In this document: positions 31,439-57,080 of the stretch, piece by piece
Layout of the letters: each line of letters begins with the position of its first letter
Position numbering within the stretch: the first letter of the stretch is position 1
Assembly: GCA_011390065.1 (NCBI GenBank)
Contig: JAABTD010000006.1
Span: forward strand, 16-64,015
Reading direction: 5' to 3'
Length of the DNA stretch: 64,000 bases
Origin: Desulfobacteraceae bacterium
Lineage (GTDB): Bacteria; Desulfobacterota; Desulfobacteria; Desulfobacterales; JAABSP01
Notes under the pieces: generated by a model
Seen by the model: only the letters and a program-made list of their open reading frames with translations
Database searches by the model: none
What the model was told of the DNA's origin: nothing
Position numbers and translations under genes: made by a program

Positions 31439-32145
31439 CGCCCCGGGCCGAGACAAAACCGGCGGCCTCGGCGGCGCCGGGGAATATCGCGGAATGCTGG
31501 CAGCGCATCGGGGTGTGGAGTGCAGAGAAAAGTTGTCCGACGCTCCAGGCGGTCATCCATTGCCGGAATTGCGAGGTCTTCATCCAGTCGGGGCGGCGGC
31601 TTCTGGATCAGGAACTGCCCCAGACCTACCGGAACGAATGGGCCGGGATCATGGCCTCGGAGAAGGAGGAGGATGAGCTGTTTCAAACGGTTTCGCTGGT
31701 TCTGTTCCGGGTCGAGGCGGAATGGCTGGCCCTTCGGACCCAGATCCTTTCCGAAGTCATTGATCCGCAGCCGCTCAAGCGCCATTCCCTTCCCCACCGA
31801 AAGAACCGGATACTGACGGGGATTATCAATGTGCGGGGGGAAATCCAGCTCTGCGTAAGCTTCAAAGACCTTCTGGGCATCGAGCAGGCGTCCGGGAAAG
31901 AGACCGGCCAGGCCCCCTATCAGCGGATGATGGTGATCAACAGCGACGACGGCAAATGGGTGTTTCCGGTCAGCGAGATCATCGGCATCTATCGGATCCA
32001 TCCCGCCACGTTTCAAAACGTTCCGGTGACGGTGGCCAAAGCCCAGTCCACCTTTACCAAGGGGATCTTCAAATGGGACGGCCGATATGTGGCCTTCCTG
32101 GATGACGAACTTTTGATTTACAGCCTTACCCGGAGCGTCCAATGA
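31435..32145 (+). CDS. cheW: CheW-like coupling protein with N-terminal Cys4 motif (WspD-like position)
   Basis: The GTG at 31435 overlaps the cheR stop (GTGA). It has the N-terminal motif CWQRIGVWSAEKSCPTLQAVIHCRNC, then a CheW domain (LVLFRVEAEWLALRTQ...INVRGEIQL). Confidence 0.8.
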   Translation: MTPRAETKPAASAAPGNIAECWQRIGVWSAEKSCPTLQAVIHCRNCEVFIQSGRRLLDQELPQTYRNEWAGIMASEKEEDELFQTVSLVLFRVEAEWLALRTQILSEVIDPQPLKRHSLPHRKNRILTGIINVRGEIQLCVSFKDLLGIEQASGKETGQAPYQRMMVINSDDGKWVFPVSEIIGIYRIHPATFQNVPVTVAKAQSTFTKGIFKWDGRYVAFLDDELLIYSLTRSVQ

Positions 32146-34583: not shown

Positions 34584-34597
34584 AGAAGAGAGGCGTC

Positions 34598-36796
34598 ATG
34601 AAAGGGAAGGTAAAAGAGCTGATGAAGCGGATGACCATCGCGAAAATGCTGTGGGGACTCGTCCTCATGGGCATCCTGGTCATTATCGGCCTTGCGGCGA
34701 CCAGCCTGCTGTCCAACAGTCGGCTGGTCAGGAGCCAGAACCGGCTCACCGAGATCGTCATGCCCATGGAACGGGCCAGCCAGAACCTTCGGGAGGCGGT
34801 GACGACCTTTGTGGGGCGGAAATATCTCATCACGGAAGCCGAGACCCTGGCGGAACTCGACGCCCTGGCCGAATCCACTGCCTATGAGAGCGTTTTCAAT
34901 CGCAACATCGATATTCTCAAGGAGCTGAACCGGAAAATGGCGGCCCTGTCATCGGACAGGGCCGCCGATTCTTCGACCCCAGGGCCTGCCGGCAGCGGAA
35001 AGGCCGATGGGCCGTCTGAACATCGCGACGATCTTTTCGAGTCGTTGCAGCGCCATCTGAAGATCGCGGCCGAGCAGAGCGCCGACATCTACAGCGTGGC
35101 CCGGACCCGAATAGAATTGAACCTCGCCATCCAGGAGAAGATCGCCCTGATGGATGCGCTGGGCGGACAACTCCACCAGGATGCCGAGCGCCTTGCCGAC
35201 CGGATCGTCAAAGCGATCCGGGAACAGTTGACCCCGGCCGGCCGGGCCGGAGAGCCCGCGGACCGGGCCGCGGAATTTTATCTGGCGGATTTGGCGGAGA
35301 CCCAGAAAACCAGCGTCGATCTGCGGCTCAATATCGCGTTTCTGACCAATTACGGACACAAGGCCCTGCTGCTGACCGATAAAGAGCGGATCACGGCGAT
35401 CAGAGCGGAAAACATGGTCCCCACGACGGAAAATATCCGGAGCGGGCTGGAAAAGCTTAAGCGGCGGGTCGCCGAATCCGAGGAGATGACCGGACTGCTG
35501 GAGCGGATCGAAGCGGCCTTCGGGCGGCTCCGCAATATCCTTCTGGACAGTGAAGACGGCATCGTCCGCCTTCAATCGCTCTGGCTGGCAAAGGAGGCGT
35601 CCATCGCCGACAAAAACGGGCGGTTGAATCAGACCACCGATGCGCTCATGTCCGGTCTGGACCGCCTTCAAACCCTCTCCGACCGGGTGCGCAACCGGGC
35701 CGAATCCGAGGCCCGGCGGGTCCAGGGCGTCTGGAAAATCATCCTGCTGGTCAGCCTCATCGCCATCGCGGCCATGGCCATGATAGGGCGGCGGATTCAT
35801 CGTCGGATCATGGGGCCCATCAACCGGACCGTTCAATTCGCAGAAGCCATCTCCGAGGGGGATTTGACGGCGGAGATCGAAAAGATCCATGAGGACGAGG
35901 TGGGCCTGCTCATCGCCAAACTGAGCGAGATGGCGCACAATCTCAACGCCCTGATCGGCCAGGTGCAGCGGTCCGGCATCCAGGTGACCTCCTCGGCCAC
36001 CGAATTGTCGGCCACGTCCAAACAGCAGGAAGCGGTCATGCGGACCCAGGTGGAATCCACCAACAACGTGGTTCAGTCGGTGGCCGAAATCTCCAACATC
36101 TCGGAGGAACTGGTGGAGACCATGAAAAAAGTAGCGGCCATGTCCGAACAGACGGCCGATTACGCGAATTCGGGCCAGGACAATCTCGCCCAGATGGAAG
36201 AGGCCATGCAGCACATGGAGAGCGCTTCCAGGTCGATCTCAGGCAAGCTGGAGACCATCAATGAAAAGGCCGCCAACATCACCTCGGTGGTAACCACCAT
36301 CACCAAAGTGGCCGATCAGACCAACCTCCTGTCCTTAAACGCCGCCATCGAAGCGGAAAAGGCCGGGGAATACGGCCGCGGCTTCACCGTCGTGGCCCGG
36401 GAGATCCGTCGGCTGGCCGATCAGACGGCCGTGGCCACCCTGGACATCGATCAGATGGTCCAGGAGATGCAGTCGGCTGTCTCGGCCGGCGTGATGGAGA
36501 TGGACGCCTTTATCGCCGAAGTCCAGCGGAGCGCTGAAAATGTGGGCCAGATCAGCACCCAGCTCACCCGGATCATCGAACAGGTCAAGTCCCTGACGCC
36601 CAGTTTCGAGGGGGTCAACGAATCCATGCAGTTCCAGTCGGAGAACGCCCAGCAGATCAACGCCGCCATGGTCAACCTGAGCGAGGAGATGCAGCAGACC
36701 GTGGAATCGCTCCAGGAATCCTTTATGGCCATTGAACAGCTCAACGATGCGGCCCGCGGTCTCCAGGACGAGGTCTCCCGGTTCAAGGTCGCTTAA
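34598..36796 (+). CDS. Methyl-accepting chemotaxis protein (WspA-like), large helical periplasmic domain
   Basis: TM1 at aa about 15-37, a helical sensor region of about 340 aa, TM2 (IILLVSLIAIAAMAMIG), HAMP and the MA hairpin TNLLSLNAAIEAEKAGEYGRGFTVVAREIRRLADQT. Confidence 0.9.
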   Translation: MKGKVKELMKRMTIAKMLWGLVLMGILVIIGLAATSLLSNSRLVRSQNRLTEIVMPMERASQNLREAVTTFVGRKYLITEAETLAELDALAESTAYESVFNRNIDILKELNRKMAALSSDRAADSSTPGPAGSGKADGPSEHRDDLFESLQRHLKIAAEQSADIYSVARTRIELNLAIQEKIALMDALGGQLHQDAERLADRIVKAIREQLTPAGRAGEPADRAAEFYLADLAETQKTSVDLRLNIAFLTNYGHKALLLTDKERITAIRAENMVPTTENIRSGLEKLKRRVAESEEMTGLLERIEAAFGRLRNILLDSEDGIVRLQSLWLAKEASIADKNGRLNQTTDALMSGLDRLQTLSDRVRNRAESEARRVQGVWKIILLVSLIAIAAMAMIGRRIHRRIMGPINRTVQFAEAISEGDLTAEIEKIHEDEVGLLIAKLSEMAHNLNALIGQVQRSGIQVTSSATELSATSKQQEAVMRTQVESTNNVVQSVAEISNISEELVETMKKVAAMSEQTADYANSGQDNLAQMEEAMQHMESASRSISGKLETINEKAANITSVVTTITKVADQTNLLSLNAAIEAEKAGEYGRGFTVVAREIRRLADQTAVATLDIDQMVQEMQSAVSAGVMEMDAFIAEVQRSAENVGQISTQLTRIIEQVKSLTPSFEGVNESMQFQSENAQQINAAMVNLSEEMQQTVESLQESFMAIEQLNDAARGLQDEVSRFKVA

Positions 36797-36814
36797 GGAG
36801 CGCAAATCGAGCCC

Positions 36815-37903
36815 ATGAGAATCGCCCTTGTCAATGATCTGGTTATGGCGGTGGAAAGCCTGCGGCGCATCCTGCTGAGCGTCCCCGGACATGAGATCGC
36901 CTGGGTGGCCCGGGATGGCCGGGAAGCCGTTACCCGATGCAGCCGTGACCTGCCGGATCTGATCCTGATGGACCTGTTCATGCCGGGAATGGACGGGGTC
37001 GAGGCCACCCGCCGGATCATGGCCGCCACTCCCTGTCCCATTCTGATCGTCACGGCCACCGTGGGCAATCATGCGGCCAAGGTCTTCGAGGCCATGGGGC
37101 ACGGCGCCTTGGACGCCGTCAACATTCCCATGATGGGCGCCGGGGCCGAGGCCCAACGAAGCCGTTACACCTTGTTGCGCAAGGTCCATGTCATTTCCCG
37201 GCTTCGGGGTCTCCCCTCCACCAGCCCGGCCAAACGGGCGTACATGGATCCTCCGCCCCCGATAGTGGCCATCGGCGCCTCCACCGGCGGCCCCAAAGCG
37301 TTGGCCGATTTGTTGTCGACCCTTCCCTGTCCCCTGGGCGCCGCGGTGGTGATCGTGCAGCATGTGGATGAAAAATTCTCCGCCGGACTGGCCGAATGGC
37401 TCGACGGCCAGACGCCTCTGCCCGTGCAGCTGGCGGCGGAGGGCGGACGTCCCCGGGCGGACGCCGTCTACCTGGCGGGCACCAACGATCATCTGGTGAT
37501 GAGTTCCGGCCTGAGCTTTTCCTATACGCCGGAGCCGGGCCGCACCCCTTACCGGCCCTCGGTGGACATCTTCTTTCGCAGCCTGGCGATCCATTGGCCG
37601 GTGGACCCGCATCCCGACGGTTCGTCCGGTTGCGCGGCCGCCATCGCCGTGCTGTTGACCGGCATGGGGCGTGACGGCGCTGAAGGGTTGGCGATTCTCC
37701 GGAAGGAGGGGTGGCGCACCATCGCCCAAGACAGGGCCACCAGCATCGTTTACGGCATGCCCAAGGCCGCCAAGGATCTGAACGCGGCAGTGGAGATCCT
37801 TCCCATCCTGGAAATCGGTCCCGCCATTGTCCGGGCCCTGCGGCGGACCACCCTCTGCGAACCGGACCAATTCAACGGCGAACCGACGGCAAGGCTTCCA
37901 TGA
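36815..37903 (+). CDS. cheB: Protein-glutamate methylesterase CheB (REC plus esterase; WspF-like)
   Basis: Receiver (IALVNDL...[13 protein letters not shown]) followed by a CheB esterase ([34 protein letters not shown]). Confidence 0.92.
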
Positions 37904-39402
37904 GCCGCGATGAGAGACATACCCCCGCCGGCAACGGCGTCGGCGGGCTGACCCAGCACCGGATCACCGTCCTGCTGGTGGACGACCAGGCCATCATCGG
38001 CGAGGCGGTCCGGCGGATGCTGACCGAAGAGGAGGACATCGACTTCCATTACTGTCAGGACGCCACGCTGGCCATCAAAACCGCCGAAAGGATTTCCCCT
38101 ACGGTGATCCTCCAGGATTTGGTCATGCCGGAAATCGACGGGTTGATGCTGGTGCGCTATTTCCGGGCCAACCCGGCAACCCGGGAGGTGCCGCTCATCG
38201 TACTGTCGGGCAAGGAAGAGCCCTTGACCAAGGCGGATGCCTTCGCCGTCGGCGCCAATGATTATCTGGTGAAACTGCCGGACCGGTTGGAGGTCGTGGC
38301 CCGGATCCGCCACCATTCCCAGGGGTACATCAACCTGCTCCAGCGAAATGAAGCCTTCAAGGCGCTGAAAGATAGTGAAAAACAACTGGAGATTCGCAAC
38401 CGGTTCATTCGGGAAACTTTCGGCCGATACCTGTCCGACGACATCGTGGACAACATCCTGGAATCGCCGGAGGGGATGAGGCTGGGGGGCGAAAAGCGAA
38501 TGGCCACCATCATGATGACCGATCTGCGCGGATTCACCGCCATCAGCGAGCGTCTGGCCGCCGAAGAGGTGGTGCGGATCATCAATAATTATCTGGAGGT
38601 GATGACGGACATCATTCTCAAATACCAGGGAACCATCGACGAGTTTATCGGCGATGCCATCCTGGTGATTTTCGGCGCGCCCATCCGGCGGGAGGACGAC
38701 GCCGAGCGGGCCATGGCCTGCGCCATCGAAATGCAGATGGCCATGGAGATCGTCAACGAGCGGAACCGGGCCTCCGGGGTTCCCGAAGTGGCCCAGGGCA
38801 TCGGCATCAACACCGGCGAAGTGGTGGTGGGCAACATTGGGTCCGAAAAACGGTCCAAATACGGCGTGGTGGGCCGGAACGTCAACCTGACCGCCCGCAT
38901 CGAATCCTACACCGTGGGCGGGCAGACCCTGATTTCCGAGAGCACGCTTTCGGCCTGCGGACCCATCCTCCGCATCGACGACCAGACCGAGGTGATGCCC
39001 AAGGGCGTCAAGGAGCCCATCACCATTTACGAGATCGGGGGCATCGGGGGGAAGCACAACCTCTATCTGCCGGAAAAAACCCCGCCCGAGATGATCGAGC
39101 TGAGCCATCCCCTGGGCATCCAGTTCACGGAGTTGAACGAAAAGGACACCCAGGAGGCGGCCCACAAGGGCGTCATCCGACGGCTGGCGGCCGAGGCGGC
39201 CGAGGTGGCCGCGGAGGTCGACGTGGGGCGGCTGACCAACATCAAGATCTCCCTGTTCGACGAGGAAGGGTACGAGATCACGACGGATCTGTACGCCAAG
39301 GTGACCCGGAACCTGTCGGCGTCCCCGGCCGAGTTCGTCGTCATTTTCACCTCGGTGCCGCCGGAGGCCAAATCCTTTTTCAGATACCGATACAATTTTT
39401 AG
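37900..39402 (+). CDS. Response regulator with class III adenylate/guanylate cyclase domain and an unassigned C-terminal domain of about 110 aa
   Basis: The ATG at 37900 overlaps the cheB stop (ATGA). REC (VLLVDDQ...[12 protein letters not shown]...YLVKLP), a helical linker, and a cyclase core ([48 protein letters not shown]). Confidence 0.88.
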
Positions 39403-39458
39403 CGCCATTGACATGGATGCGCCATGCCCAGCCGGAAGATCCGGAAAAAGGATTGCAC

Positions 39459-40250
39459 ATGAAGATTAGATTTCTTGGCGTCGGTTCCGCGTTCACGACG
39501 CCGGAACATTACCAGTCGAACCTTCTGATCACGGCCCCCAGCGGGCGGAACATGCTGGTGGATTGCGGAACCGATATCCGGTTTTCACTCCGGGAAGGCT
39601 TGCCGGACAACGCGCTGCCCTACGAGGCGATCGATGCGGTTTATATTTCCCATCTCCATTCCGACCATATCGGCGGCATGGAGTGGCTGGCCTTTTTAAC
39701 CTATTTCAACCCCCATCAGCCGCGGCTCCGGCTTTACATGGAAGAGGCGACCATGCGGGAGATGTGGCGCACGTCTCTCAAGGGCGGGCTCGGCTGTATC
39801 CAGGGGAAGCGGATGCACCTGACCGATTATTTCGACTGCCGTCCGGTGGCGGTCAACGGGTCGTTCATTTGGGAGTCGATCCGGTTTACCCTGGTGCGGA
39901 TGCTGCATATCAGCACCGGATACCGGGATTTTTACAGCTACGGTCTTTTAATGGCCGATGCCCGCAAGGCGGGACCGGCGATTTTTTTCACCACCGACAC
40001 CCAGTACCGGCCCCATTTGCTGCGGGATATCGCACAGGATGCCGCGCTCATCTTCCATGATTGCGAAACCAGTCCGGTCAGAAGCATCGTCCACGCCCAT
40101 TACCTGGACCTCCGGGAACTGCCGGCCGCGTTGCGAACCAAAATGTGGCTCTATCATTATCAACCCGATCCGAAATTCGATCCGGAGGCGGATGGGTTCC
40201 GGGGGTTTGTCCGGAAGGGGCAGGAATTCGACCTGGAGGGTCTCATCTGA
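39459..40250 (+). CDS. MBL-fold metallo-hydrolase
   Basis: HLHSDHIGG (HxHxDH) motif. ATG at 39459 after an AAGGA SD, 56 nt downstream of the cyclase gene on the same strand. Confidence 0.75.
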   Translation: MKIRFLGVGSAFTTPEHYQSNLLITAPSGRNMLVDCGTDIRFSLREGLPDNALPYEAIDAVYISHLHSDHIGGMEWLAFLTYFNPHQPRLRLYMEEATMREMWRTSLKGGLGCIQGKRMHLTDYFDCRPVAVNGSFIWESIRFTLVRMLHISTGYRDFYSYGLLMADARKAGPAIFFTTDTQYRPHLLRDIAQDAALIFHDCETSPVRSIVHAHYLDLRELPAALRTKMWLYHYQPDPKFDPEADGFRGFVRKGQEFDLEGLI

Positions 40251-44819: not shown

Positions 44820-45137
44820 CTATCGATAGAGTCGGATGGACGGTCGGTCGCCGCCCGGACCGACAATGCCGCTGAGTTGGCCGTCTGTGAAAAGCAGCAA
44901 CAGATTGCCGTCATTGTAGACCCAGACGTCGCGCCTGGCGCCGTCGCAGTCGCTCAGACGGGCGCCGCTGATGGGAAATCCGATGGTTTTGACCACATGG
45001 AGGCCGCTCATGCCGATTTCGATGGGAGATTTCGGCGCTTCCGCCGCACGGCGGGGTGGGGACGTGCGAAATCGATCGAACTGGGCGCACCCCATCAACA
45101 GGGTCAGGATCACAATGCTCGGGAGCAGTCTTTTCAA
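44820..45137 (-). CDS. Small lipoprotein, hypothetical
   Basis: A TTG start after an AAGGAAG SD gives MKRLLPSIVILTLLMGC, a lipobox signal peptide. The longer 130-aa ORF has no SD. Confidence 0.5.
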   Translation of the reverse strand: MKRLLPSIVILTLLMGCAQFDRFRTSPPRRAAEAPKSPIEIGMSGLHVVKTIGFPISGARLSDCDGARRDVWVYNDGNLLLLFTDGQLSGIVGPGGDRPSIRLYR

Positions 45138-45269
45138 TGGAGATCTTCCTTTTTTTGAGCCAGGTTGTTCGGGGCCGGCGCTGCGGCCTGCTGGCATCGT
45201 CGATAACGACATTACCGTATCAGGTCTATCCGGTTTGTCAATATGGATTTCCCGGTTCCATATTTATAT

Positions 45270-45298
45270 TTTACAAACATTAGATTTTTATGTATTAA
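45270..45298 (+). promoter_or_regulatory. Sigma70-like promoter candidate in an A/T-rich stretch upstream of the REC-SBP-CheW operon
   Basis: TTTACA, 17 nt spacer, TATTAA, about 55 nt upstream of the ATG at 45353. Confidence 0.3.
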
Positions 45299-45352
45299 GT
45301 TGAGTTGCGCAGGGCGTTTGCCTTCGCCGGCAATTCATATGGAGGTTATTTC

Positions 45353-47326
45353 ATGCCCATAGATCCCAAAGATGTCAAAATCCTGTTGGTCGAAGACGCC
45401 GCGACCATGCGAAAGATCGAGGTCAAAACCCTTCGATCGCTGGGCTTCGACAATATCCTGGAGGCCCAGGATGGCGAGGAGGCGGTCCGGAAGCTCCAGG
45501 AAGAAAACGACGTCAATTTCATTATCAGCGACTGGAACATGCCCAACAAGGATGGGTATGAACTGCTGGTGTGGGTGCGCGCCAGCGAGAAGTATAAACA
45601 CATCCCCTTTGTCATGGCCACGGCCCAGGGGGAGACCAAACAGGAGAACAAAGCCGTCGAGGCGGGGGTCAGCGCTTTCGTGGCCAAACCCTTCAATGCC
45701 GACGAACTGAAGAGCAAGATCCACGAGGCGTTCGGGGTCAAGGAAAGCGATGAAGCGCTGCTGGGCGCAGAAAATCGACAGCGGGAGACCCGGTCCGGCA
45801 AGTTGAAGCTCAAGATCGCCCATATCCAGATCACGGACCATCTGGTGGCGGGGGTCCTGGCGGAACTGATTCGCAAGGGGGTGATGACGCCCCGGTATTT
45901 CGAACTGGAGCTTCAGTGCATGCAGGGGTGGAACCTGGTCAAGGAGGCCCTGGCCAAGGGACGGGTGGACGCGGCCTGCATTTTAGCGCCCATCGCCATG
46001 GACCTTTTCAGCTCGGGCGCTCCCATCAAGCTGATCATGCTGGCCCATAAAAACGGTTCCATTTTCGTCCGCAACCGACAGGGCGTTTACCAGGAGCCGC
46101 ACCAGGATTTTTTCAAGGATAAATCCTTTTTCATCCCCCATACCATGTCGGTTCACCATATGCTGTGTCATTTGTTTTTCAGCAAAATCGGGCTGAAACC
46201 GGGCCTGGCCGGGGACCGGGGGATTGATGTGAACTTCGAGGTCATCGACCCCATCCTGATGCCGGAGTTCCTGAGGGCCAATCCGGGGTCCGGCGGCTTC
46301 ATGGTGGCGGAACCCCTGGGCACCAAAGCCATCGCTTCGGGCATCGCCGAGTTGCAGTTTCTATCGGGTGAACTCTGGGAGCAGCATCCCTGTTGCGTGG
46401 TGGCCATGCGGGAAGAGATCATCGACCGCTACACCGACGCGGTCTACGAATTTTCCGAAATGCTGGTTCAGGCCGGAAAATTCATTGAGAAGAAACCCGA
46501 AACGGCGGCGGAGATCGCGGTCTCCTTTCTCGATCCCACCAAAAAACTGGGGCTCAAGGTGCCGCTTCTCAAAAATGTCCTGACGGAAAAGATGGGCATC
46601 AAATCAGGCGACCTTTACCCCGCCATCGAAGACCTGGACAAAATCCAGCGATACATGCACCGGAACATGGGGATCGGGACCATCATCGATCTGGAAAAAT
46701 TCGTAGAACTGCGGTTTGCCGACGAAGCCTGCCAGGGACGGGCGACGGCGAAGAAGACCTCGGTGATCCACGACTCCGTGGACCTGGCGGTGGAGATTCT
46801 CCGGCGGGGCGCGGAGGACGATGAGGACGCCGTGACCCTCTCCTCAAAGGCCATGCTCAACAAAGAGGGGAAATATCTCACCTTCACCCTGGGAGAGCAG
46901 GAATTCGGCATCGATATCCTCAAGGTCCGGGAGATCGTCGGGATGGCGCCCATCCGATCCATTCCCCAGACCCCGCCGGCCATCAAAGGGGTGATCAACC
47001 TGCGGGGCAAGGTGATTCCGGTCATGGACCTGCGTCTGCGCTTCGGGATGGACGAACGGGACTACACCGACCGCACCTGCATCATCGTTCTGGAGCACGA
47101 GGTCGACGACAAGACGGTCCAGATGGGGATTGTGGTGGACACGGTTTCAGAGGTCCTGCCCATGAAGGCGTCGGAGATCGAAGAAACCCCCAATTTCGGG
47201 GCCAGCATCGACACCAGACACATTCTGGCCATCGCCAAGATGGAAAGCGGGGTCAAAATCCTGCTGGACATCGATTACGTCCTCACCGGCAGGGAGCAGA
47301 TCGCCGTTCAGAATCTGTTCGAATGA
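45353..47326 (+). CDS. Three-domain fusion: CheY-like receiver, cytoplasmic NitT/TauT-type solute-binding-protein-like domain, CheW domain
   Basis: REC at aa 7-125 closely resembles CheY (IISDWNMPNKDGYELL, VAKPF). Aa about 150-455 are paralogous to the downstream SBP (IQITDH, GFMVAEP, HPCCVVAMREE). Aa about 505-650 form a CheW domain (YLTFTLGEQEFGIDILKVREI...INLRGKVIPVMDLR). GGAGG SD; no signal peptide. Confidence 0.85.
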   Translation: MPIDPKDVKILLVEDAATMRKIEVKTLRSLGFDNILEAQDGEEAVRKLQEENDVNFIISDWNMPNKDGYELLVWVRASEKYKHIPFVMATAQGETKQENKAVEAGVSAFVAKPFNADELKSKIHEAFGVKESDEALLGAENRQRETRSGKLKLKIAHIQITDHLVAGVLAELIRKGVMTPRYFELELQCMQGWNLVKEALAKGRVDAACILAPIAMDLFSSGAPIKLIMLAHKNGSIFVRNRQGVYQEPHQDFFKDKSFFIPHTMSVHHMLCHLFFSKIGLKPGLAGDRGIDVNFEVIDPILMPEFLRANPGSGGFMVAEPLGTKAIASGIAELQFLSGELWEQHPCCVVAMREEIIDRYTDAVYEFSEMLVQAGKFIEKKPETAAEIAVSFLDPTKKLGLKVPLLKNVLTEKMGIKSGDLYPAIEDLDKIQRYMHRNMGIGTIIDLEKFVELRFADEACQGRATAKKTSVIHDSVDLAVEILRRGAEDDEDAVTLSSKAMLNKEGKYLTFTLGEQEFGIDILKVREIVGMAPIRSIPQTPPAIKGVINLRGKVIPVMDLRLRFGMDERDYTDRTCIIVLEHEVDDKTVQMGIVVDTVSEVLPMKASEIEETPNFGASIDTRHILAIAKMESGVKILLDIDYVLTGREQIAVQNLFE

Positions 47327-47356: not shown

Positions 47357-48121
47357 ATGACCATACAGATGGAAAAGGTCTGTAAACGGTTTCCACAACC
47401 GGCGGGGAAGGAATTGTCCGTTCTTGAGGACGTCGATCTGGTCATCGGCGAGGGGGAATTCGTCATTATCCTGGGAGAGTCGGGCTGCGGCAAATCGACC
47501 CTGCTCAACCTGATGGCGGGGCTGCTGCCCCTTTCCGACGGCGAGATCCGGGTCAAAGGAACCCGGGTCGCACGCCCCCACCCCTCCCGGGCAATGCTTT
47601 TCCAGCAGCCGAGCCTGCTGCCGTGGCTCAATGTGGAGGAGAATATCGTTTTCGGGTGTAAACTTCGGGGGGAAAAAGAGAATCTCGCGGTGCGCACGGC
47701 GCAGCTGATTGAGATCATGGGGTTGTCGGGGTTTGAGAAGGTCAAGCCCCACGAACTGTCCCTGGGAATGGCCCAGCGGGTCTGCCTGGCCCGGGCCATG
47801 ATCGGTCATCCTCAGATCCTCCTGCTGGATGAACCCTTTGCTTCTCTGGACACCATCACCCGGTCTCACCTGCAGGAGGAACTGATCGAGTTCTGGATGG
47901 TGGAAAAATTCACTGCCGTTTTCGTCACCCACGACATCGACGAGGCGATTCTCATGGGCACCAAGGTGGTCCTTCTGGGAGGGCGGCCCCGCGGCATCCT
48001 CCAGGCCTACGAAGTCAACCTTAATTATCCCCGGGACATCGCCAGTCGAGGGTTTTTTCTCCTTCGGTCCGCCATCATCAAAAAGTTGCGGGAATCTTTT
48101 GACGGACGTCAGGAAGGCTGA
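47357..48121 (+). CDS. ABC transporter ATP-binding protein, NitT/TauT (nitrate/sulfonate/taurine) family
   Basis: Walker A GESGCGKST, signature LSLGMAQR and Walker B ILLLDEPF. Confidence 0.9.
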   Translation: MTIQMEKVCKRFPQPAGKELSVLEDVDLVIGEGEFVIILGESGCGKSTLLNLMAGLLPLSDGEIRVKGTRVARPHPSRAMLFQQPSLLPWLNVEENIVFGCKLRGEKENLAVRTAQLIEIMGLSGFEKVKPHELSLGMAQRVCLARAMIGHPQILLLDEPFASLDTITRSHLQEELIEFWMVEKFTAVFVTHDIDEAILMGTKVVLLGGRPRGILQAYEVNLNYPRDIASRGFFLLRSAIIKKLRESFDGRQEG

Positions 48122-48137: not shown

Positions 48138-49322
48138 ATGCCCCTGACGAGGCGGGATTTTCTTAAAACGGCAGGGGCGGGCGCGCTGGTCGCCGGGACG
48201 TCGGCGTGCCGGAACCGGACCGACGACCATGAGACCCTGCACATCGGGTATCTGCCCATCACTGACGCTGCGCCTTTGTTGATCGCCCATGCCATGGGCT
48301 ATTTTCAGGATGAGGGACTGACGGCGGCGCCTCCCCGGCGGGTCCGAAACTGGTCTACTCTTTCCGAGTCCTTGCTGACGGGCAAGTTCAACGTGACCCA
48401 TCTGCTTCTGCCCATTCCCCTCTGGATGCGCTACAATAAAAATATGCCGGTCAAGGTGCTGGCGTGGGACCACACCAACGGCAGCGCGCTGACCGTCCGG
48501 GGCGACGCGTCCATCCGGGGGTTCGCCGATCTGGGAGGGAAACAGATCGCGGTTCCCTACTGGTATTCCATGCACAACATCATTCTCCAGATGGGCTTGA
48601 AAAAAGCAGGTTTGAAACCCGTGATCCAGTCCCAGCGGACCGTTTTGAAATCCGACGAGGTCAATCTCTTCGTGCTGCCGCCCCCGGAGATGCCCATGGC
48701 GCTGTCCGGAGGCAAGATCGACGGTTTCATTGTGGCCGAACCCTTCAACGCCCTGGCGGAACTCAAAATCGGAGCGAAGATCCTGAGATTCACGGGGGAT
48801 ATCTGGAAAAACCATCCCTGCTGCGTCATCGTCATGAAGGAGTATTTCACTCGTGAACATCCTGTTTTCACACAGAAGACGATCAACGCCATCGTGCGGG
48901 CCCAGCTGTGGATTATACAGAACCCCGCCGGGGCGGCAAGGATTCTCAGTCGGGAGGGGGGCGGGTATCTTCCCACCAGCGAAACGGTGTTGCAACGGGT
49001 CTTTACCGGCTATGAGGTCGAAACATACGGCCCCGGGGCCGTCCCCCAGGCCATCCGTCATCCCGAATGGGGAATACGGCGCATCGCCTTTCAACCCTAT
49101 CCCTATCCGTCAGCCACCCGATTAATCCTTCGTGAAATGCGCGAAACGGCGATGGAGGGAGATGCGGCGTTTTTGAAAAAGCTGAGCCCCGACGAGGTGA
49201 TCGGCGATCTGGTGGATGACCGCTTCGTTAAAAAGGCCATCGATTCGGTGGGCGGACCGGGACGTTTTGATCTCATGGATTTTCAAGACCCGTGGCAACG
49301 GGAGGAAGTGATCGCGTTTTAA
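48138..49322 (+). CDS. ABC transporter substrate-binding protein, NitT/TauT family, Tat signal peptide
   Basis: Twin-arginine signal MPLTRRDFLKTAGAGALVAGTSAC. NrtA/SsuA-like core (IGYLPITDAAPLLIAH, GFIVAEPFN, HPCCVIVMKE). Confidence 0.85.
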   Translation: MPLTRRDFLKTAGAGALVAGTSACRNRTDDHETLHIGYLPITDAAPLLIAHAMGYFQDEGLTAAPPRRVRNWSTLSESLLTGKFNVTHLLLPIPLWMRYNKNMPVKVLAWDHTNGSALTVRGDASIRGFADLGGKQIAVPYWYSMHNIILQMGLKKAGLKPVIQSQRTVLKSDEVNLFVLPPPEMPMALSGGKIDGFIVAEPFNALAELKIGAKILRFTGDIWKNHPCCVIVMKEYFTREHPVFTQKTINAIVRAQLWIIQNPAGAARILSREGGGYLPTSETVLQRVFTGYEVETYGPGAVPQAIRHPEWGIRRIAFQPYPYPSATRLILREMRETAMEGDAAFLKKLSPDEVIGDLVDDRFVKKAIDSVGGPGRFDLMDFQDPWQREEVIAF

Positions 49323-49330
49323 TTCCGGAT

Positions 49331-50152
49331 ATGCAAATTACCCCGCACCTATTTCAGAAGCGTTTGAAAAAGCCCGGGCCCAACGGGCGCTATGTGATGT
49401 TCCGGGTCGGTTACGCTCTGCTGGGCATCGGGCTGTTCATTTTTCTTTGGGTGGCGGGGGGCTATCTCGTGTTTACCCGGCCCGGCTACGAGCAGTTTTC
49501 CGGGTTTCTGCCCGTTCCCACCCTGGAGGCATTCCGGGGCCTGCTGTTCGAAGACCAGTTCTGGCAATCCGTCTGGGCCAGCATCCGGCGGGTGATCATC
49601 GGCATCACCATCGCCTTTGTCCTCGGGCTTCCCCTGGGTCTGCTCATCGGTTTTTACGAAAAGCTCCAGCTGACGACTTACACCCCCGTCCAGTTTCTGC
49701 GAATGATCAGTCCTCTGTCCTGGATGCCCGTGGCCCTGCTGGTGTTCCACAGCTTTGAATCGGCCATTTATTTTCTCATCACCATGGCGACGGTGTGGCC
49801 TATCATTCTCAATACGGCCCACGGCGTCTCCCAGGTCAACCCCCACTGGGTCAACATGGCCCGGAACCAGGGGGCCAAGGATTATCAGCTGCTGATGAAA
49901 ATCGTGGTGCCGGCGTCGATTCCCTACATCCTTACCAGCCTTCGTCTGGCCCTGGGCGTGGCCTGGATCGTGCTGGTGCCGGCCGAATTCCTGGGGATCT
50001 CCAGCGGCCTGGGTTACATCATCAACGACGCCCGGGACACCATGGAATATGATCGCCTCGGCGCCATCATCATCGCCATCGGCTTCATAGGATTCATCCT
50101 GGACGGGAGCATCGAAATTATTCAGCGGATGTTCAGCTGGAATGTGGCGTGA
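49331..50152 (+). CDS. ABC transporter permease, NitT/TauT family
   Basis: Six predicted TM segments and an EAA-like loop (ARNQGAKDYQLLMKIVVPASIPYI). ATG 9 nt after the SBP stop. Confidence 0.88.
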   Translation: MQITPHLFQKRLKKPGPNGRYVMFRVGYALLGIGLFIFLWVAGGYLVFTRPGYEQFSGFLPVPTLEAFRGLLFEDQFWQSVWASIRRVIIGITIAFVLGLPLGLLIGFYEKLQLTTYTPVQFLRMISPLSWMPVALLVFHSFESAIYFLITMATVWPIILNTAHGVSQVNPHWVNMARNQGAKDYQLLMKIVVPASIPYILTSLRLALGVAWIVLVPAEFLGISSGLGYIINDARDTMEYDRLGAIIIAIGFIGFILDGSIEIIQRMFSWNVA

Positions 50153-50187: not shown

Positions 50188-51219
50188 ATGGCTAAAATTA
50201 CATCTCGGTTTCGACATTACATCGCCAAGCTGGTGGTTACCCGGCCCGCCATGGTGGACCGGTACGTCTGGCTGCGGATGACCGACCGGGCTGCCGAATT
50301 GCTCAATGCCAAATTCGACATCAAGGCGCCGCGCAGATTGCGCATAGCCAAGGACGACTATGAGTGGAAACGCTGGGATTTCTTCGCTGCCGCGAAATAT
50401 TTCTTCAATTTCAAGGCTGAAACCGTCGCCGCCATCTATAGCCGGTGGTTCAACACGCCGGGGTTCGATCCCAAGTTCAAGCCTTCCGTGTTGTTGAACC
50501 TCTGGTTGACGGTGCCCATCTTCGTCTTCGCCCCGGATGGATTGTCAGAGGATCAGAAGAAGGAGAAGATCAAGGAGATGGAGGCGAAAATCGACGAAGT
50601 GATCGGCGTCATTGGGGAATCCAACCCGGATTTGACCGCTGATTTGCTCCAGAACATGTCGGTCGATGCGGCTGTTCAGTTTCTGGAAAAGACCAATGCG
50701 CCGCCCCTGCTCATGGTGTTGCGGAAAATTCTTCCATTCGAAGTCACCGTTAAGCTTTTCAACGCCTTGCGGCAAAAAAATCATGATCGCTTCACCTACT
50801 GGATTCAACGATTTCCCATCGAGGATGTGGCCAAGGCCAAGATGAGACTGCTGGAGATCGATCGAATGGCCATTGAAGAATACCGGCTCAAAAACGAGAT
50901 CATGAAATACAAGCATGGGGAACTGAGCCGCAGAAAAGAAGAATATCAGATTGAGACCGAACCCTTCAAACAGGACGCTGAGCAGTGGCAGTACAAAAAT
51001 GATAAAATCAAATTCGAGGAGATGGTCGAGAAACGGGAAAAGCGGAGAGCGGAGAAAGAGGATTCCATCGAAGAGCAGCAACGAGAACGGCAGGCCAATC
51101 TGGAGAAGAGCGTAGCGGATCTGGCCAAAACCCTGACGGACGTCATCAACCAGTACCGTCAGGAGGAAGAGAAACCGGCCAGACCGATCCAGTCGGCGGA
51201 AGGCAAGGGGGAAAAATGA
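50188..51219 (+). CDS. Hypothetical protein with Lys/Glu-rich coiled-coil C-terminal half
   Basis: 343 aa, same strand, 35 nt after the permease. Codon usage is visibly more A/T-rich than the neighbours. I recognised no family. Confidence 0.6.
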   Translation: MAKITSRFRHYIAKLVVTRPAMVDRYVWLRMTDRAAELLNAKFDIKAPRRLRIAKDDYEWKRWDFFAAAKYFFNFKAETVAAIYSRWFNTPGFDPKFKPSVLLNLWLTVPIFVFAPDGLSEDQKKEKIKEMEAKIDEVIGVIGESNPDLTADLLQNMSVDAAVQFLEKTNAPPLLMVLRKILPFEVTVKLFNALRQKNHDRFTYWIQRFPIEDVAKAKMRLLEIDRMAIEEYRLKNEIMKYKHGELSRRKEEYQIETEPFKQDAEQWQYKNDKIKFEEMVEKREKRRAEKEDSIEEQQRERQANLEKSVADLAKTLTDVINQYRQEEEKPARPIQSAEGKGEK

Positions 51220-51889: not shown

Positions 51890-52426
51890 ATGAACATGAC
51901 CGACGCCGCCCGTGCGGATGTGGAAGATCAGGCCCGCCGCATCGTCGAGGTGGGAAAGCTGTTGCACGATTATGTCCACCAGAGTTTCAGCCGCCACGCC
52001 GCCGGCAACCGAGGCCGGAAAAAACTGGCGTCATTAACCCTGCCCCAGCTTGATGCCGTCAGAGCGGCCGGCCGGTCCGATGAAGTGACCATTACGAAGC
52101 TGTCCAGAACGCTGGGGGTGTCGGCGCCTTCAGCCTCGGCCATGGTGGATCGCCTGGTGGAGCGGGGCATCCTCATTCGGGAGCGGAGCCGGCAGGACCG
52201 CCGGAAGGTGGTGGTCCGCGTTTCCGAGGATGTGGCGGAGGATATCCAGCGCATTGAGGAGAGCATTCTGGGAGAATTTATCGATATCATTGAAAAAATA
52301 GGCCCGGAAGCCGCCGGGAAATGGTGCGAGGTCCTGGACCGGGTCCATTGCATTCTGGCTGAAAAATCGACGACCCGATCCGGATGCGGACAACAAAGAA
52401 GGGGGGAAACCCATGGAATCGAATAA
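51890..52426 (+). CDS. MarR-family transcriptional regulator
   Basis: Winged-helix core LTLPQLDAVRAAGRSDEVTITKLSRTLGVSAPSASAMVDRLVERGILIRERSRQDRRKVVV. Confidence 0.85.
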   Translation: MNMTDAARADVEDQARRIVEVGKLLHDYVHQSFSRHAAGNRGRKKLASLTLPQLDAVRAAGRSDEVTITKLSRTLGVSAPSASAMVDRLVERGILIRERSRQDRRKVVVRVSEDVAEDIQRIEESILGEFIDIIEKIGPEAAGKWCEVLDRVHCILAEKSTTRSGCGQQRRGETHGIE

Positions 52427-53759
52427 AAACGGCCGGCCCCGTGCCCGGGTGCTGTTCCGCGTCGTATTGTGCATGATCGTGCTGGGCATCGGCGCGGCCG
52501 GCATGATGGCCCTGGCCGGCTTAAAGGAACCGCCGGCCGAAGCCGAGCATGCGGAACGGCCCATCAAGGTGGAAACGGTGACCGCGATGCCCACGGACGT
52601 CGAGGTTTACATCTCCGGCTTCGGAGAGGCCCGTTCCCTGAATGTGGTCGCCATTGCAGCGGAGGTATCCGGACGGGTGGCGGCGGTCCATCCCCGCCTG
52701 GAGCCGGGTGAGATCATCGCCGAAGGAGAACTGTTGTTCCGGATCGACGACAGCACTTACCGGGCCGCCGCCGATGAGGCCCGGGCCATGGTGGAGGGGC
52801 GGCAGAAGACGATCGCCCGCCTCCAACAGGAATATGAGGCGGACCGCCGGCGTCTCAAGACGCTGAAGCGGAACAAGGACCTTGCGGCCCGCGAATATCG
52901 ACGGCTCAAAACGCTTTACGAACAGGACGACGTGGGGACCCGGTCCGGCGTGGAAAAAGCGGAACAGGCTGTCAACGCCGCTGTCGATGCGGTCGATCAA
53001 CTATCCCTGGCCGTGGCGGTCTATCCCACGCGGATCGAGGAGAGCCGGGCGTCCCTTGCTTCTGCCAGGGCCACCCTGGAACGGGCCCAAAACGATCTGG
53101 AACGGACCACGGTCCATGCGCCTTTCGACGGCCGGGTCAAGAGCGCCGACATCGAGGCAGGCCAGTATGCCGCTCCGGGTCAGACCGCGGTGGTCCTCGC
53201 CGACGATTCCGTGCTGGAAATCCAAGCTCCCCTGGACAGTCGGGATGCCCGGAAATGGCTCCGTTTCAATGAGGGCCAGGCCGGAACCAATGCCGCCTGG
53301 TTCACAAACCTCACCCCGGTTCCCTGCACCGTCCGGTGGACCGACGACCCGGAAGGCCACCAATGGTCTGGCCGCCTCCACCGGGTGGTGGCCTTTGATC
53401 CCACAACCCGCACCCTGACCGTCGCCGTTCGGGTCTCCGCCGCCGAAGCCCTTTCCGGCGACGGTCTGCCGCTGGTGGAGGGCATGTTCTGCCGGATGGA
53501 AATTCCCGGAAATACCCTTCACGACGTTTTTCCCCTGCCGCGATGGGCCGTCTCATTCAAGGACACCGTTTACCTGGCGCAAGGCGATCGGCTGAAAACA
53601 ACGCCGGTTTCGGTGGCCCGGGTGGAAGGGGAGAAAGCCCTGGTCTCCGGAGGACTGACGCCGGGCGACCAGGTGATCGTCACCCGCCTGGTGGATCCTC
53701 TGGAAAATTCGTTGCTTGAAATCGTTGACCCGGCCGCCTCGGAGGGGGATCGATCATGA
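52413..53759 (+). CDS. Efflux RND transporter periplasmic adaptor (MFP/HlyD family)
   Basis: N-terminal TM, a coiled-coil hairpin region and barrel segments. It overlaps the marR stop, and its own stop overlaps the RND start (ATGA). Confidence 0.88.
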   Translation: MESNKNGRPRARVLFRVVLCMIVLGIGAAGMMALAGLKEPPAEAEHAERPIKVETVTAMPTDVEVYISGFGEARSLNVVAIAAEVSGRVAAVHPRLEPGEIIAEGELLFRIDDSTYRAAADEARAMVEGRQKTIARLQQEYEADRRRLKTLKRNKDLAAREYRRLKTLYEQDDVGTRSGVEKAEQAVNAAVDAVDQLSLAVAVYPTRIEESRASLASARATLERAQNDLERTTVHAPFDGRVKSADIEAGQYAAPGQTAVVLADDSVLEIQAPLDSRDARKWLRFNEGQAGTNAAWFTNLTPVPCTVRWTDDPEGHQWSGRLHRVVAFDPTTRTLTVAVRVSAAEALSGDGLPLVEGMFCRMEIPGNTLHDVFPLPRWAVSFKDTVYLAQGDRLKTTPVSVARVEGEKALVSGGLTPGDQVIVTRLVDPLENSLLEIVDPAASEGDRS

Positions 53760-56700
53760 AAGCCGTTCTGACCGCGTTCGCGCGGAATCGCGTATTTGCC
53801 AATATCCTGCTCCTGCTCATTTTCATGGCCAGCTTTCTGGCCATCAAATCCATGGTCAGGGAGACCTTTCCCGAGTTTTCCCTGGACATGATCACCATCA
53901 CCGTCCCCTATCCGGGCGCCGACCCCGAGGAGGTGGAGGAAGGCATCAGCCGGAAGATCGAAGAGGCTCTCGATGATGTGGAAGGGATCAAGCAGTACAC
54001 CACCCAGTCCAGCGAAGGGGTTGCCGCGGCCCAGATTGAAGTCAAAGAAACATACGACGTTGCAGACGTCCTGGATAAAGTCCGCACGGAGATCAACGCC
54101 ATTTCCACCTTTCCGGTGGATGCTGAAAACCCGATCATCTCCGAGATGACGCTCAAGGATTCCGTGGTGCTGATCTCGGTTTCCGGCGATATGTCCGAGC
54201 GGGGGCTCAAGGAGTGGGCTCATCGGATGAAAGACGAGATGCAGCAACTTCCGGAAATCTCCCAGGCCGAGGTCTTCGTGGTCCGGGAATACGAGATCGG
54301 CGTCGAGGTCTCCGAAACCCGGCTCCGGGAATACGGCCTCACCTTCGATCAGGTGGCCGCCGCCGTTCGGCAGAGCAACCTCAACATGGCCGGCGGCGCC
54401 ATCCGGTCCGAAGGGGAAGAGATCCGGGTGCGGACCATGGGCCGGAAATACACCGGCAAGGAGATGGCCAAGATTGTGGTGAAGGCTGCGCCGGGCGGGG
54501 AACTCATCACGCTGGATCGGCTGGCGGTCATCGACGACGGGTTCGCCGAAGACCCCATCGAAGCCCGCATCAACGGCCGGCCGGCGGCCCTGCTCAATAT
54601 TCTCAAAACCAAAGAAGAGGACGCCCTGACCATCGCCGGCGCGGTTTCCCGGTTCATTGAACAGAAGCGGCGGGAACTGCCGGCCGGCGCCGATATCGCT
54701 GTCATCTATGACGCCACGGAGATGCTCCAGGACCGCATCGACCTGCTGCTCAAAAACGGGATCATCGGGCTGGCCCTGGTCTTCCTGCTTTTGTGGCTGT
54801 TTCTGGACATGCGGCTCAGCTTCTGGGCCGGCATGGGCATTCCCATCTCCCTGGGCGGCGGCATGGTGATCCTCTGGATGATGGGCGAGACCATCAACAT
54901 GATTTCCCTCTTCGGGCTCATCATGGTCCTGGGGATTGTTGTGGATGACGCCATCGTGGTGGGAGAGGCCATCTTTGTGCACCGCCAGCAGGGCGAACCG
55001 CCTCTGAAGGCCGCCGTGGAGGGGGTGAGCGAGGTGGGCCTGCCGGTGATCGCAGCGGTGGTCACCTCCATCGTGGCCTTTTTGCCCCTGGCCTACATCG
55101 GCGGCGTCATGGGGAAATTCATCGAAATCCTGCCGGTGGTGGTCATCGCCTGTCTGCTCATTTCCCTGGTGGAATGTCTCATTCTTCTGCCGGCCCATCT
55201 CAGCGACCTGCCGGACCCCAACCGAAAACGGCCCCGCCGCTGGTCTCCGGCCGCAATCAACACCCTGACCGGCCGGGGGATGGAATGGTTTGTCGAGCAG
55301 GTCTACAAACCCTTCCTGAGAAAGGCGGTTCACTGGCGCTACGTCTCCTTTTGCACCGCCATCGCCGTGTTGTTGATCACCATCGGGTTTATGCGGGGCG
55401 GGATTCTCAAATTCGAGGTTTTCGGCGAGGTGGACGGGTTCATCGTCACGGCCAATGTGACATTTCCCAACGGCACGCCGCCCGATGTCACCGAGGCGGC
55501 GGTGAAGCGCATCGATGCGGCCATGGCGCGTCTTTCCGAGCGGCTGGAAACCGCCTCCGGAAAGCCCCTGGTGATCAACCGCCTCTCCCTGGTGGGCCAG
55601 AGTCTGGGCCAGATTCCGGAATCCGGTCCTCATCTGGGCGGGATGCACGCCGTTCTCCTGCCTTCGGAGGAACGGGGCATCCCCTCCCAGGACATCCTGG
55701 TGATGTGGGAAAAAGAGGTGGGGCCCATTCCCGGCGTTAAGTCCCTTATTTTCGAGGGCATGGCCACCGGCCCGCCGGGAGCGCCCATCGAGGTCTGGAT
55801 TCAGGGCCGCGATATGGAACCGATTCTGGCGGCGGCCGATGATCTTCAGGAGCGGCTGCGGGACTTCGAGGGCGTGTATCAGGTGCGAAGCGATTTTTCC
55901 CCCGGCAAAAATGAACTCCGGCTTTCCCTGAAACCCGAGGCCCGGACCCTGGGGCTGACGGTAGAGGATCTGGCCCGACAGGTCTATGCCGGCTATTACG
56001 GCCAGGAGGCAGTTCGGCTCCAAAGGGGACGGGACGACATCCGGGTCAAGGTCCGCTACACCGAAGCGGAGCGGGGCCGTCTTTCCGACTTCCAGAATAT
56101 TCGGATCCGCACCCCGGAGGGCTTAGCCGTGCCGCTGCTGTCGGTGGCCGACGCGACCTTCGCGCCGGGATACGCCACCATCACCCGGACCGATGGGATG
56201 CGCCGGGTCGCAGTGAGCGCCGCAGTGGATTCCGGCAAGGCCAACGCCAACGAGATCCTCAACCGGCTGGCAAGCGATTATTTCCCCAAACTCAACGACG
56301 CCTATCCGGGGATTTACATTTCGTCCCAGGGTGAAAAGAAAAAGATGCGGGAATCGTTTTCCAGCCTGATGGTGGGCGTGCCCATGGCCCTGATCGGCAT
56401 CTACATCATCATCGCCACGATGTTCCGGTCGTACCTCCAGCCGATGGTGATTCTTTTTACGGTCCCTTTCGGCATCATCGGGGCGATTCTGGGTCACTTG
56501 CTGCTGGGGTACAATTTGTCGCTCCTGTCGGTATTCGGCATGGTGGCCCTCACCGGGGTGGTGGTCAACGACGCCATCGTGCTCATCGAGCGGATCAACG
56601 AAAACCTCGCCGGCGGCATGGCGTTTGTCGATGCCATTGTCAACGGCGGCGCCCGGCGGTTCCGGGCCATTATTCTCACCACCCTCAGCACCGTTGGGGG

Positions 56701-57019: not shown

Positions 57020-57080
57020 TGATGGCGCGGGACGGGGTTCAATTGCTTTCAACGCTAAACAACTGGATCAGAAAGTCGAG

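Follow-up and report, generated by a model that had tools for sequence, protein, structure and literature searches.

A 64,000-nucleotide stretch of a Desulfobacteraceae bacterium genome (GenBank assembly GCA_011390065.1, contig JAABTD010000006.1, positions 16 to 64,015; hereafter, the window, whose numbering is used throughout) encodes a 657-residue protein that joins a CheY-type receiver (REC), a cytoplasmic solute-binding-protein (SBP) fold and a CheW domain in one polypeptide (45353..47326 including the stop codon, + strand). The REC-SBP-CheW architecture defines a real gene family, conserved in many anaerobes and catalogued but uncharacterised. Within it, REC-SBP is a conserved unit for which CheW is one output among several. 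We consider it an even bet that the window protein is a soluble, array-associated adaptor of the CheV kind, with coupling that would be set by phosphorylation together with a cytoplasmic ligand.

Domains and integrity of the fusion gene

Frame translation of the window gives an uninterrupted frame of 657 codons, with many stops breaking the complementary strand. The ATG at 45353 lies 7 nt 3′ of a GGAGG ribosome-binding site and its methionine coincides with the start of the homologues; a scan of the AT-rich region upstream (45235..45352, + strand) gives, besides GGAGG, a weak sigma-70-like match at 45235-45264. The upstream neighbouring open reading frame (ORF; 44820-45212) is on the opposite strand and, because it is divergent, the fusion gene is probably the first of its transcription unit. 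Pfam places the domains in the order REC (residues 10-123), NMT1_2 (151-389) and CheW (507-645), all three above their gathering scores. The best NCBIfam models are CheW (1.6e-33) and CheY (3.9e-30); the 657-residue protein stays below both equivalog cut-offs (115.8 bits against 260 and 104.6 bits against 189, respectively), as expected when domains that are scored as whole proteins are fused. The full-length AlphaFold model (predicted local distance difference test score (pLDDT) 79.8) has three well-folded domains and two low-confidence linkers.

The receiver (45380..45721, + strand; Pfam Response_reg 2.3e-23) is 42-44% identical to Escherichia coli CheY with a Foldseek template modelling (TM) score of 0.93, and carries the motifs IISDWNMPNKDGYELL and VAKPF. 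Its phospho-acceptor Asp60 and accompanying E14, D15, T90 and K112 are invariant in 30 homologues. The CheW domain (residues about 505-645; 46865..47287, + strand; Pfam 6.5e-35) is complete, matching E. coli CheW with 108 bits, a TM score of 0.86 and 41% identity. It conserves the equivalents of V36, E38, I39, G57 and R62, which we take from E. coli genetics to be the receptor- and CheA-contact residues of CheW. The central domain (residues about 150-460; 45800..46732, + strand) matches NMT1_2 (PF13379) at 4.8e-24 and 86 bits against a cut-off of 24.7, and is a type-II binding-protein fold of two lobes and a C-terminal helical subdomain. It starts near residue 150, inside the protein, and has no signal peptide, that is, it is not of the exported type. 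On all these points the initial annotation, which had described a single protein with a receiver very close to CheY, a signal-less NitT/TauT-type binding domain and a complete CheW domain, is borne out.

The domains are separated by two variable linkers, both on the + strand: residues about 124-149 (45722..45799), with 34% mean identity and pLDDT below 50 at residues 132-140, and residues about 461-504 (46733..46864), with 37% mean identity and pLDDT below 50 at residues 488-499. Identity among 30 family members is 66-73% in the three domains and 34-37% in the linkers. The share of invariant positions is highest in the SBP part (about 27%, compared with 13% in CheW), so the insert is under selection at least as strong as that on the signalling domains. 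An AlphaFold model of residues 1-470 reaches pLDDT 88.7 and a predicted TM score of 0.87; the latter is higher than expected if the receiver, with 27% of the residues, floated freely, and hints, indirectly, that receiver and SBP fold pack through a defined interface.

Among about 5.8 billion proteins, clustered at 90% identity, at least 120 clusters have the same three Pfam domains and are 59-91% identical over 97-100% of the length; the contigs that carry members belong to isolates as well as to many metagenomes. When one genome per species is scanned, the gene occurs in many lineages of Desulfobacterota (Desulfobacterales, Desulfatiglandales, Desulfarculales, Syntrophobacterales, Desulfobulbales and Geopsychrobacteraceae), in Ignavibacteriota and in a metagenome-assembled genome (MAG) from Chloroflexi; the protein search added a member from KSB1. 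Cultured carriers include Desulfonema magnum, Desulfatibacillum alkenivorans DSM 16219, Desulfacinum hydrothermale DSM 13146 and Rosettibacter primus. This distribution bears on the concern that separate genes could have been joined into one frame by an assembly or frameshift error; we found no point in favour of such an artefact. The full-length architecture recurs in the at least 120 clusters, with members from the complete 8.0-Mb D. magnum chromosome and from isolates of Desulfatibacillum, Desulfacinum and Rosettibacter. An artefact is therefore excluded, and the open frame is genuine.

The REC-SBP unit and its partners

The central domain alone, searched against 1.84 billion cluster representatives, has 624 relatives, 74 of them at E < 1e-30. 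In most of the closest relatives the SBP fold again begins near residue 143 behind a receiver, but what follows it at the C terminus varies. By Pfam scans and probe searches we find, next to REC-SBP-CheW, fusions of REC-SBP to a CheA core (a dimerisation, a kinase and a CheW-like domain), to a PP2C (SpoIIE) phosphatase domain, to NIR_SIR and to a second REC; the partner-switching arrangements REC-SBP-RsbW-STAS and RsbW-REC-SBP-STAS; a hybrid histidine kinase with REC-SBP at its end; a tandem of two REC-SBP units; and REC-SBP alone (about 460 residues). Because the pair is placed before interchangeable effectors of chemotaxis-type and partner-switching pathways, we read it as an input or regulatory module. 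The initial annotation had described REC-SBP-CheW; that combination is present, but what is conserved as a unit is REC-SBP, which also occurs in front of many other C-terminal partners.

In three CheA-like kinases (P0129, P0132 and P0140), REC-SBP stands in place of the N-terminal histidine-phosphotransfer (Hpt)/P2 region. We detected no Hpt domain in these fusions, so that their phosphorylation would need a P1 domain in trans. The NIR_SIR fusion (P0142; 894 residues, with NIR_SIR_ferr and NIR_SIR domains) has one representative, on a 19.8-kb metagenome contig. More distant relatives of the central domain are stand-alone cytoplasmic proteins of about 310 residues and proteins in which a methyl-accepting chemotaxis protein (MCP) signalling domain is followed by the SBP domain; there is a HAMP-linked form as well. 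In this group (P0254, 848 residues; P0234, 531 residues) the C-terminal NMT1_2 domain has the Cys-Cys/His cleft described below, so the same sensor fold is built straight into receptors too.

Among the closest known counterparts of the window protein is CheV, in which a CheW-like domain and a receiver that can be phosphorylated likewise share one chain; by analogy, the window protein would be expected in the array and phosphorylated by CheA. CheV is a two-domain protein with CheW at the N terminus and REC at the C terminus, whereas here, as the initial annotation had pointed out, the order is reversed and a binding-protein fold of roughly 350 residues lies between the two. The receiver also differs in being CheY-like, and REC-SBP exists without CheW.

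The binding-protein cleft and its candidate ligand

With AlphaFold models as Foldseek queries, the best Protein Data Bank (PDB) match of the central domain is Staphylococcus aureus 3UN6 (TM score 0.84-0.88; root-mean-square deviation 2.4 Å for the 0.88 match), which is also its best match in sequence (E = 2e-17). NrtA, CmpA, TauA and SsuA follow, together with the cytoplasmic regulatory domains (CRDs) of CmpC and NrtC, which the central domain resembles in sequence as well as in fold. Thi5 structures also occur among the fold matches, and CheB shows that REC-enzyme fusions exist in chemotaxis. Together these raise the idea that the central domain is an SBP-fold enzyme like Thi5/NMT1, regulated by the receiver and tethered to the array, for example to modify receptors. 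We consider this very improbable: binding proteins match better than Thi5 does (TM score 0.61-0.67, 9-13% identity for Thi5), NMT1, the Pfam model of the Thi5 family, is not listed for the window protein even at a permissive E-value limit of 0.1, and the cleft signature is shared with the binding protein of a transporter.

That signature comprises, in the window protein, D162, H163, W193, H232, S236, S266, H268, E320, H345, C347 and C348. In every architectural variant, down to about 25-30% identity, D162, H163, W193, H232, G235, S236, S266, H268, E320, H345 and C348 are kept, and all of these except H163 recur in the periplasmic binding proteins of the importer encoded beside the fusion gene (see below). 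Eight conserved histidines accompany the Cys-Cys pair in the homologues. These patterns speak to a simpler account, in which the protein is a plain CheV-like adaptor or phosphate sink and its SBP fold a mere spacer or oligomerisation domain that binds nothing. CheW and REC are indeed the domain set of CheV, and both flanking linkers look flexible. However, the SBP fold is the most conserved part of the protein, and cleft residues shared by variants whose outputs are unrelated, and by genuine binding proteins of transporters, would not persist in a spacer; we therefore hold a spacer role to be quite improbable.

The CRDs of CmpC and NrtC (PDB 9UAI/9UAK/9U9Z and 8WM7; PMC13287603, PMC10945777) offer a functional comparison. 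Like the window domain, they are signal-less cytoplasmic NrtA-like clamps with an extra C-terminal helical subdomain and are encoded with a NitT/TauT-type importer; they differ in being fused to an ATPase rather than to REC and CheW. The CmpC-CRD has been shown to act as a sensor of an intracellular ligand, docking to its partner and letting go of it: without nitrate it locks the ATPase domains, and it frees them on nitrate binding (PMC13287603). It holds nitrate by Trp319, His408, Gly452 and Lys481, the last of these being the specificity-setting position, occupied by Lys269 in NrtA, Lys in NrtC and Glu in the bicarbonate protein CmpA (PMC13287603).

We mapped this site onto the window protein by HMMER alignment (chain index equal to residue number minus 259). 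Trp319 corresponds to W193, Gly452 to A319 and Lys481 to C348 (HPGKV against HPCCV). His408 pairs with H268 according to the S-x-H motif and to a transitive alignment via the periplasmic paralogue, an ambiguous assignment, as direct HMMER alignment gave H273. Of the nitrate site, the Trp, the His and the small residue thus persist (W193, H268, A319), whereas the Thr and Asn of the CmpC site are replaced by H232 and S236. The specificity position is an invariant Cys directly preceded by a second Cys, in an HPCC motif that is invariant in the cytoplasmic domain and in 18 orthologues of the periplasmic paralogue. With Lys481 replaced by C348 after C347 and Thr and Asn by H232 and S236, the ligand is expected to differ from that of CmpC. 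Nitrate and bicarbonate sensing, suggested in the initial annotation, is accordingly rejected: the position that is Lys in the nitrate proteins and Glu in CmpA belongs here to an invariant Cys-Cys pair, which makes either anion an unlikely ligand.

The Cys-Cys pair leads instead to 3UN6, which was crystallised with zinc and has H...G, IPHxxSxH and CC motifs in common with the central domain. Binding proteins of this type, belonging to NitT/TauT importers, occur in operons of clade-B CO dehydrogenase (CODH; PMC6344411, PMC13592312). Double-Cys motifs are rare in binding proteins, and metal binding has been proposed for SaoX (bioRxiv 10.1101/2022.07.06.499078); more generally, the double Cys of the 3UN6-like cleft has been proposed or modelled to hold a metal together with one or two His (PMC6344411, PMC13592312, bioRxiv 10.1101/2022.07.06.499078). 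In sequence, H232, H268, H345, C347 and C348 are the equivalents of such a predicted site of two Cys and one or two His. The putative equivalence of HPCC to the Cys pair 224-225 of SaoX comes from motif comparison with a poorly machine-read supplementary figure. Since this Cys-Cys/His set is typical of 3UN6-like proteins predicted to hold a Zn-like metal, the cleft may well bind a thiophilic species, with a metal ion, or else a small molecule having affinity for such a metal or for thiols, as the probable ligand. The known 3UN6-like proteins are exported transporter subunits, whereas the window domain is an internal, cytoplasmic part of a signalling protein, and no CODH gene lies near the window fusion gene.

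Membership of the window importer in the SAO group was considered and rejected, with NCBIfam scores of 205.6 bits against 360 for SaoA, 154.4 against 295 for SaoP and 60.1 against 300 for SaoX. The window permease furthermore lacks the Cys/Sec gate residue, having no Cys at all.

The same residues could instead make the domain a redox or thiol-state sensor, in which C347-C348 and the histidines would report cytoplasmic redox state, reactive sulfur species or metal stress through covalent or coordination chemistry, as an input to the array resembling energy taxis. The invariant Cys pair at the position of the ligand-specifying Lys and the eight conserved histidines around it would suit such a role, the hosts are sulfur-cycling anaerobes, and one relative is fused to NIR_SIR. 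There is also a tandem rhodanese gene (Pfam Rhodanese 6e-31, two domains) as immediate neighbour of the REC-SBP-CheW gene in 8 loci, spread over two orders and two arrangements: divergent and upstream in Desulfobulbales (L025, L031, L033, L034, L041 and L047), convergent and downstream in Geopsychrobacteraceae (L043 and L069). However, only 8 of the 51 CheW-type loci surveyed have the rhodanese neighbour, and the Cys-Cys/His set also occurs in importer binding proteins exported by the twin-arginine translocation (Tat) pathway, which points to a structural metal or to reversible binding of a transported species and away from redox switching. We consider redox sensing unlikely. Under ligand sensing, the rhodanese linkage and the NIR_SIR fusion are weak hints of a small sulfur species or another inorganic one.

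Importer linkage and the proposed signalling role

Directly after the fusion gene, on the same strand, come the genes of an ATP-binding cassette (ABC) importer. The ATPase gene (NitT/TauT group; 47357..48121, + strand) starts 16-30 nt downstream, with no terminator-like site in between. It is followed by an NMT1_2 periplasmic binding protein (48138..49322, + strand) with a TRRDFLK Tat motif, W/H/S/H/HPCC cleft motifs and an N terminus (MPLTRRDFLK...TSAC) that makes it a possible lipoprotein, and by a BPD_transp_1 permease (49292..50152, + strand). The periplasmic protein is 26% identical to the cytoplasmic SBP domain over 268 residues (E = 7e-23), with shared motifs. In 18 orthologues of this protein, four cleft histidines and the Cys pair are invariant, and 16 of them have a Tat motif; Tat export fits a protein that would fold around a metal before export. 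The importer genes are followed directly by a 343-residue ORF (50188-51219, + strand) that matches no family and whose C-terminal half is rich in Lys and Glu and resembles a coiled coil; a 42%-identical copy stands at the same position in the related locus L006.

Clustering of the ORFs within 7 kb in 82 loci gave no universal neighbour of the CheW-type genes, for which 51 loci were examined; those that recur are the tandem rhodanese (8 loci), FeoB (5), HtpG (5) and the importer, which is adjacent in three loci, namely the window, D. magnum and one Desulfobacteraceae MAG (L006; 77% identity). The recurrence of FeoB and HtpG is attributed to lineage synteny. The importer is found more consistently with a sister group: in at least 14 Desulfobacteraceae loci, from Desulfobacter, Desulfobacula, Desulfamplus, Desulfospira, Desulfotignum and relatives, a CheW-less REC-SBP gene directly follows an orthologous importer, with a binding protein 52-60% and a permease 53-65% identical to those of the window. 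Because two different gene arrangements join the same importer to REC-SBP, a functional connection between importer and module is supported. The initial annotation had linked the sensor to the transported solute. Operon membership with an importer whose binding protein is a paralogue sharing the cleft residues upholds that link in the window, but the importer stands beside only 3 of the 51 CheW-type loci, and the link is better supported by the CheW-less sister group.

In the adaptor reading, the CheW domain would place the protein in the chemoreceptor/CheA lattice, and a CheA-type kinase would phosphorylate the receiver on Asp60, as in CheV. The SBP clamp would close on a small cytoplasmic ligand, most likely the very substrate that the co-transcribed importer takes up or a chemical relative of it; uptake and behaviour would then be linked through the intracellular pool. 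The combined state of REC and SBP would alter the way in which CheW couples receptors to the kinase, or what is recruited there. This reading is also favoured by REC-SBP genes that lie within che clusters and by a CheX phosphatase gene directly after the fusion gene in D. alkenivorans (see below). The domains with their integrity and conservation, the modularity of REC-SBP and the gene linkage are established here, whereas phosphorylation by CheA, binding to the array, ligand binding and the direction of signalling are inferred.

Information could also flow in reverse, with the array as input: CheW would tether the protein there, and CheA would phosphorylate the receiver and thereby change docking of the SBP clamp on the nucleotide-binding subunits of the importer, tuning uptake. 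This has precedent in the CmpC/NrtC regulatory domains, which lock or release nucleotide-binding domains (PMC13287603) and which the central domain resembles; REC-SBP genes repeatedly share an operon with one orthologous importer; and ordinary response regulators have an N-terminal receiver followed by the output domain. In most members, however, another recognisable output (CheW, CheA core, PP2C or STAS) follows the SBP fold, which thus takes the middle position typical of a second sensor, and most CheW-type genes are not near the importer. Nor would transporter regulation alone require a conserved ligand cleft, although the CmpC-CRD does use ligand binding. We regard reversed flow as improbable, yet the most serious of the alternatives to the adaptor reading.

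Several observations weigh against the adaptor reading itself. In 48 of the 51 CheW-type loci there is no importer within 10 kb; most are orphan genes and few lie near che genes, so that the partners of the CheW-type proteins must be inferred. The conserved residues are placed in the cleft through alignment to CmpC-CRD and NrtA, so its lining should be taken as predicted. The two linkers vary in sequence and are modelled poorly, which speaks against a rigid allosteric path to CheW and, by analogy with CmpC-CRD, suggests regulated docking instead. Finally, the literature that we searched (CheW-like architectures, CheW with NMT1, response-regulator output domains with NMT1, REC-CheW, and receiver with solute-binding and CheW domains) gave no description of, or experiment on, the REC-SBP-CheW architecture. 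The novelty raised by the initial annotation stands in that literature but not in public databases, which hold many entries under the generic names ‘chemotaxis protein CheW’, ‘response regulator’ and ‘ABC transporter substrate-binding protein’. A survey of CheW architectures reported that CheW rarely occurs with receiver domains or with domains unrelated to chemotaxis, and left out architectures with fewer than 40 sequences (bioRxiv 10.1101/2022.05.07.491035).

Parts of the proposed scheme have parallels elsewhere. NasS (with NasT) and AmiC (with AmiR) are soluble, signal-less SBP folds that sense intracellular ligands and, as separate proteins, control ANTAR antiterminators. The window protein shares their use of a signal-less SBP fold as a cytoplasmic sensor domain; it differs in that the sensor is covalently joined to REC and CheW, and no ANTAR domain was found among the 20 neighbouring window ORFs scanned. 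In transport-linked chemotaxis (the phosphotransferase system (PTS) signalling to CheA, and periplasmic binding proteins acting on Tar, Trg and Tap), a transport binding protein or flux likewise feeds the array. Those systems sense in the periplasm or through PTS phosphorylation, whereas the window protein has a cytoplasmic binding-protein paralogue inside an array adaptor.

In the prevailing view, chemical information reaches arrays almost entirely through receptors, and CheW and CheV serve structure or adaptation. If the adaptor reading holds, signals would have a second way in: a CheW that carries a ligand-binding clamp and a phosphorylation switch of its own and reports on the interior of the cell rather than its surroundings. 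More tentatively, and with the balance of probability against it, we propose that REC-SBP with the Cys-Cys cleft is an undescribed, widespread cytoplasmic sensory module that would sense a thiophilic species after uptake by a dedicated Tat-dependent ABC importer and relay a phosphorylation-gated signal both to arrays (CheW and CheA-core fusions) and to partner-switching cascades (PP2C, RsbW and STAS fusions). The species sensed would then be a transition metal, a metalloid or a small inorganic molecule on a Zn-like site, and chemosensing would be transport-dependent and based in the cytoplasm, bypassing the ligand-binding domains of chemoreceptors. Across sulfate reducers, Ignavibacteria and candidate phyla, the module is combined with at least six different outputs. 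The binding protein of the importer falls into one Cys-Cys/His subfamily with the binding proteins encoded next to clade-B CO dehydrogenases and with that of the Clostridioides difficile SAO locus, and the identity of the ligand for any one of them would inform all. As cultured hosts exist, the question is directly testable, and we see in it a solid, testable lead for the chemotaxis and signal-transduction field rather than a categorically new system.

Further REC-SBP neighbourhoods and window genes

Other REC-SBP genes do lie within che clusters (L048, L053, L054, L056, L058 and L075). In Desulfatibacillum alkenivorans DSM 16219 (L012:11968-13421), the REC-SBP-CheW gene is followed by a CheX phosphatase, a 306-residue signal-less SBP paralogue with the HPCC cleft and a 4Fe-4S protein. 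In a Desulfatiglandales genome (L005/L008:7492-8001), the fusion gene begins exactly at the end of a separate CheW gene whose product shares 63% identity with the fused CheW domain; this suggests a duplication, or an origin of the fusion from such a pair.

After the CheW-less REC-SBP gene, 12 loci encode a small, very acidic protein (MKITDP...GGxIVVHNNQVAF...FDRxGNYIP, an Asp/Glu-rich stretch and ILKESRDFW) that matches no Pfam family. It begins about 20-50 nt 3′ of the REC-SBP gene in loci that include L063-L068, L070, L072, L073 and L081 (for example, L068:11393-11872), and may be a partner or output of CheW-less REC-SBP.

The window itself contains a complete Che-like cluster (30101-39402, + strand) encoding CheR with tetratricopeptide repeats, a 257-residue CheW, a CheA-CheW-REC hybrid, an MCP with HAMP, CheB and a REC-adenylate/guanylate cyclase. 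The REC-cyclase is the likely output of this cluster, that is, cyclic-nucleotide rather than motility control. We do not claim the cluster as a partner of the fusion protein: it lies 6-15 kb upstream, and six unrelated genes on both strands intervene. Immediately after it, about 5 kb upstream of the fusion gene, is a metallo-beta-lactamase-fold gene that matches the anti-Pycsar Apyc1 family (39408-40250, + strand). An Ignavibacteria MAG has a similar gene (L004:6268-7089, - strand) at a distance of about 0.9 kb upstream from its homologue of the fusion gene; the proximity is probably a coincidence. Downstream, at 51890-58475 (+ strand), a MarR regulator is followed by a tripartite resistance-nodulation-division (RND) efflux system with an HlyD-type adaptor, an AcrB-type pump and an outer-membrane factor.

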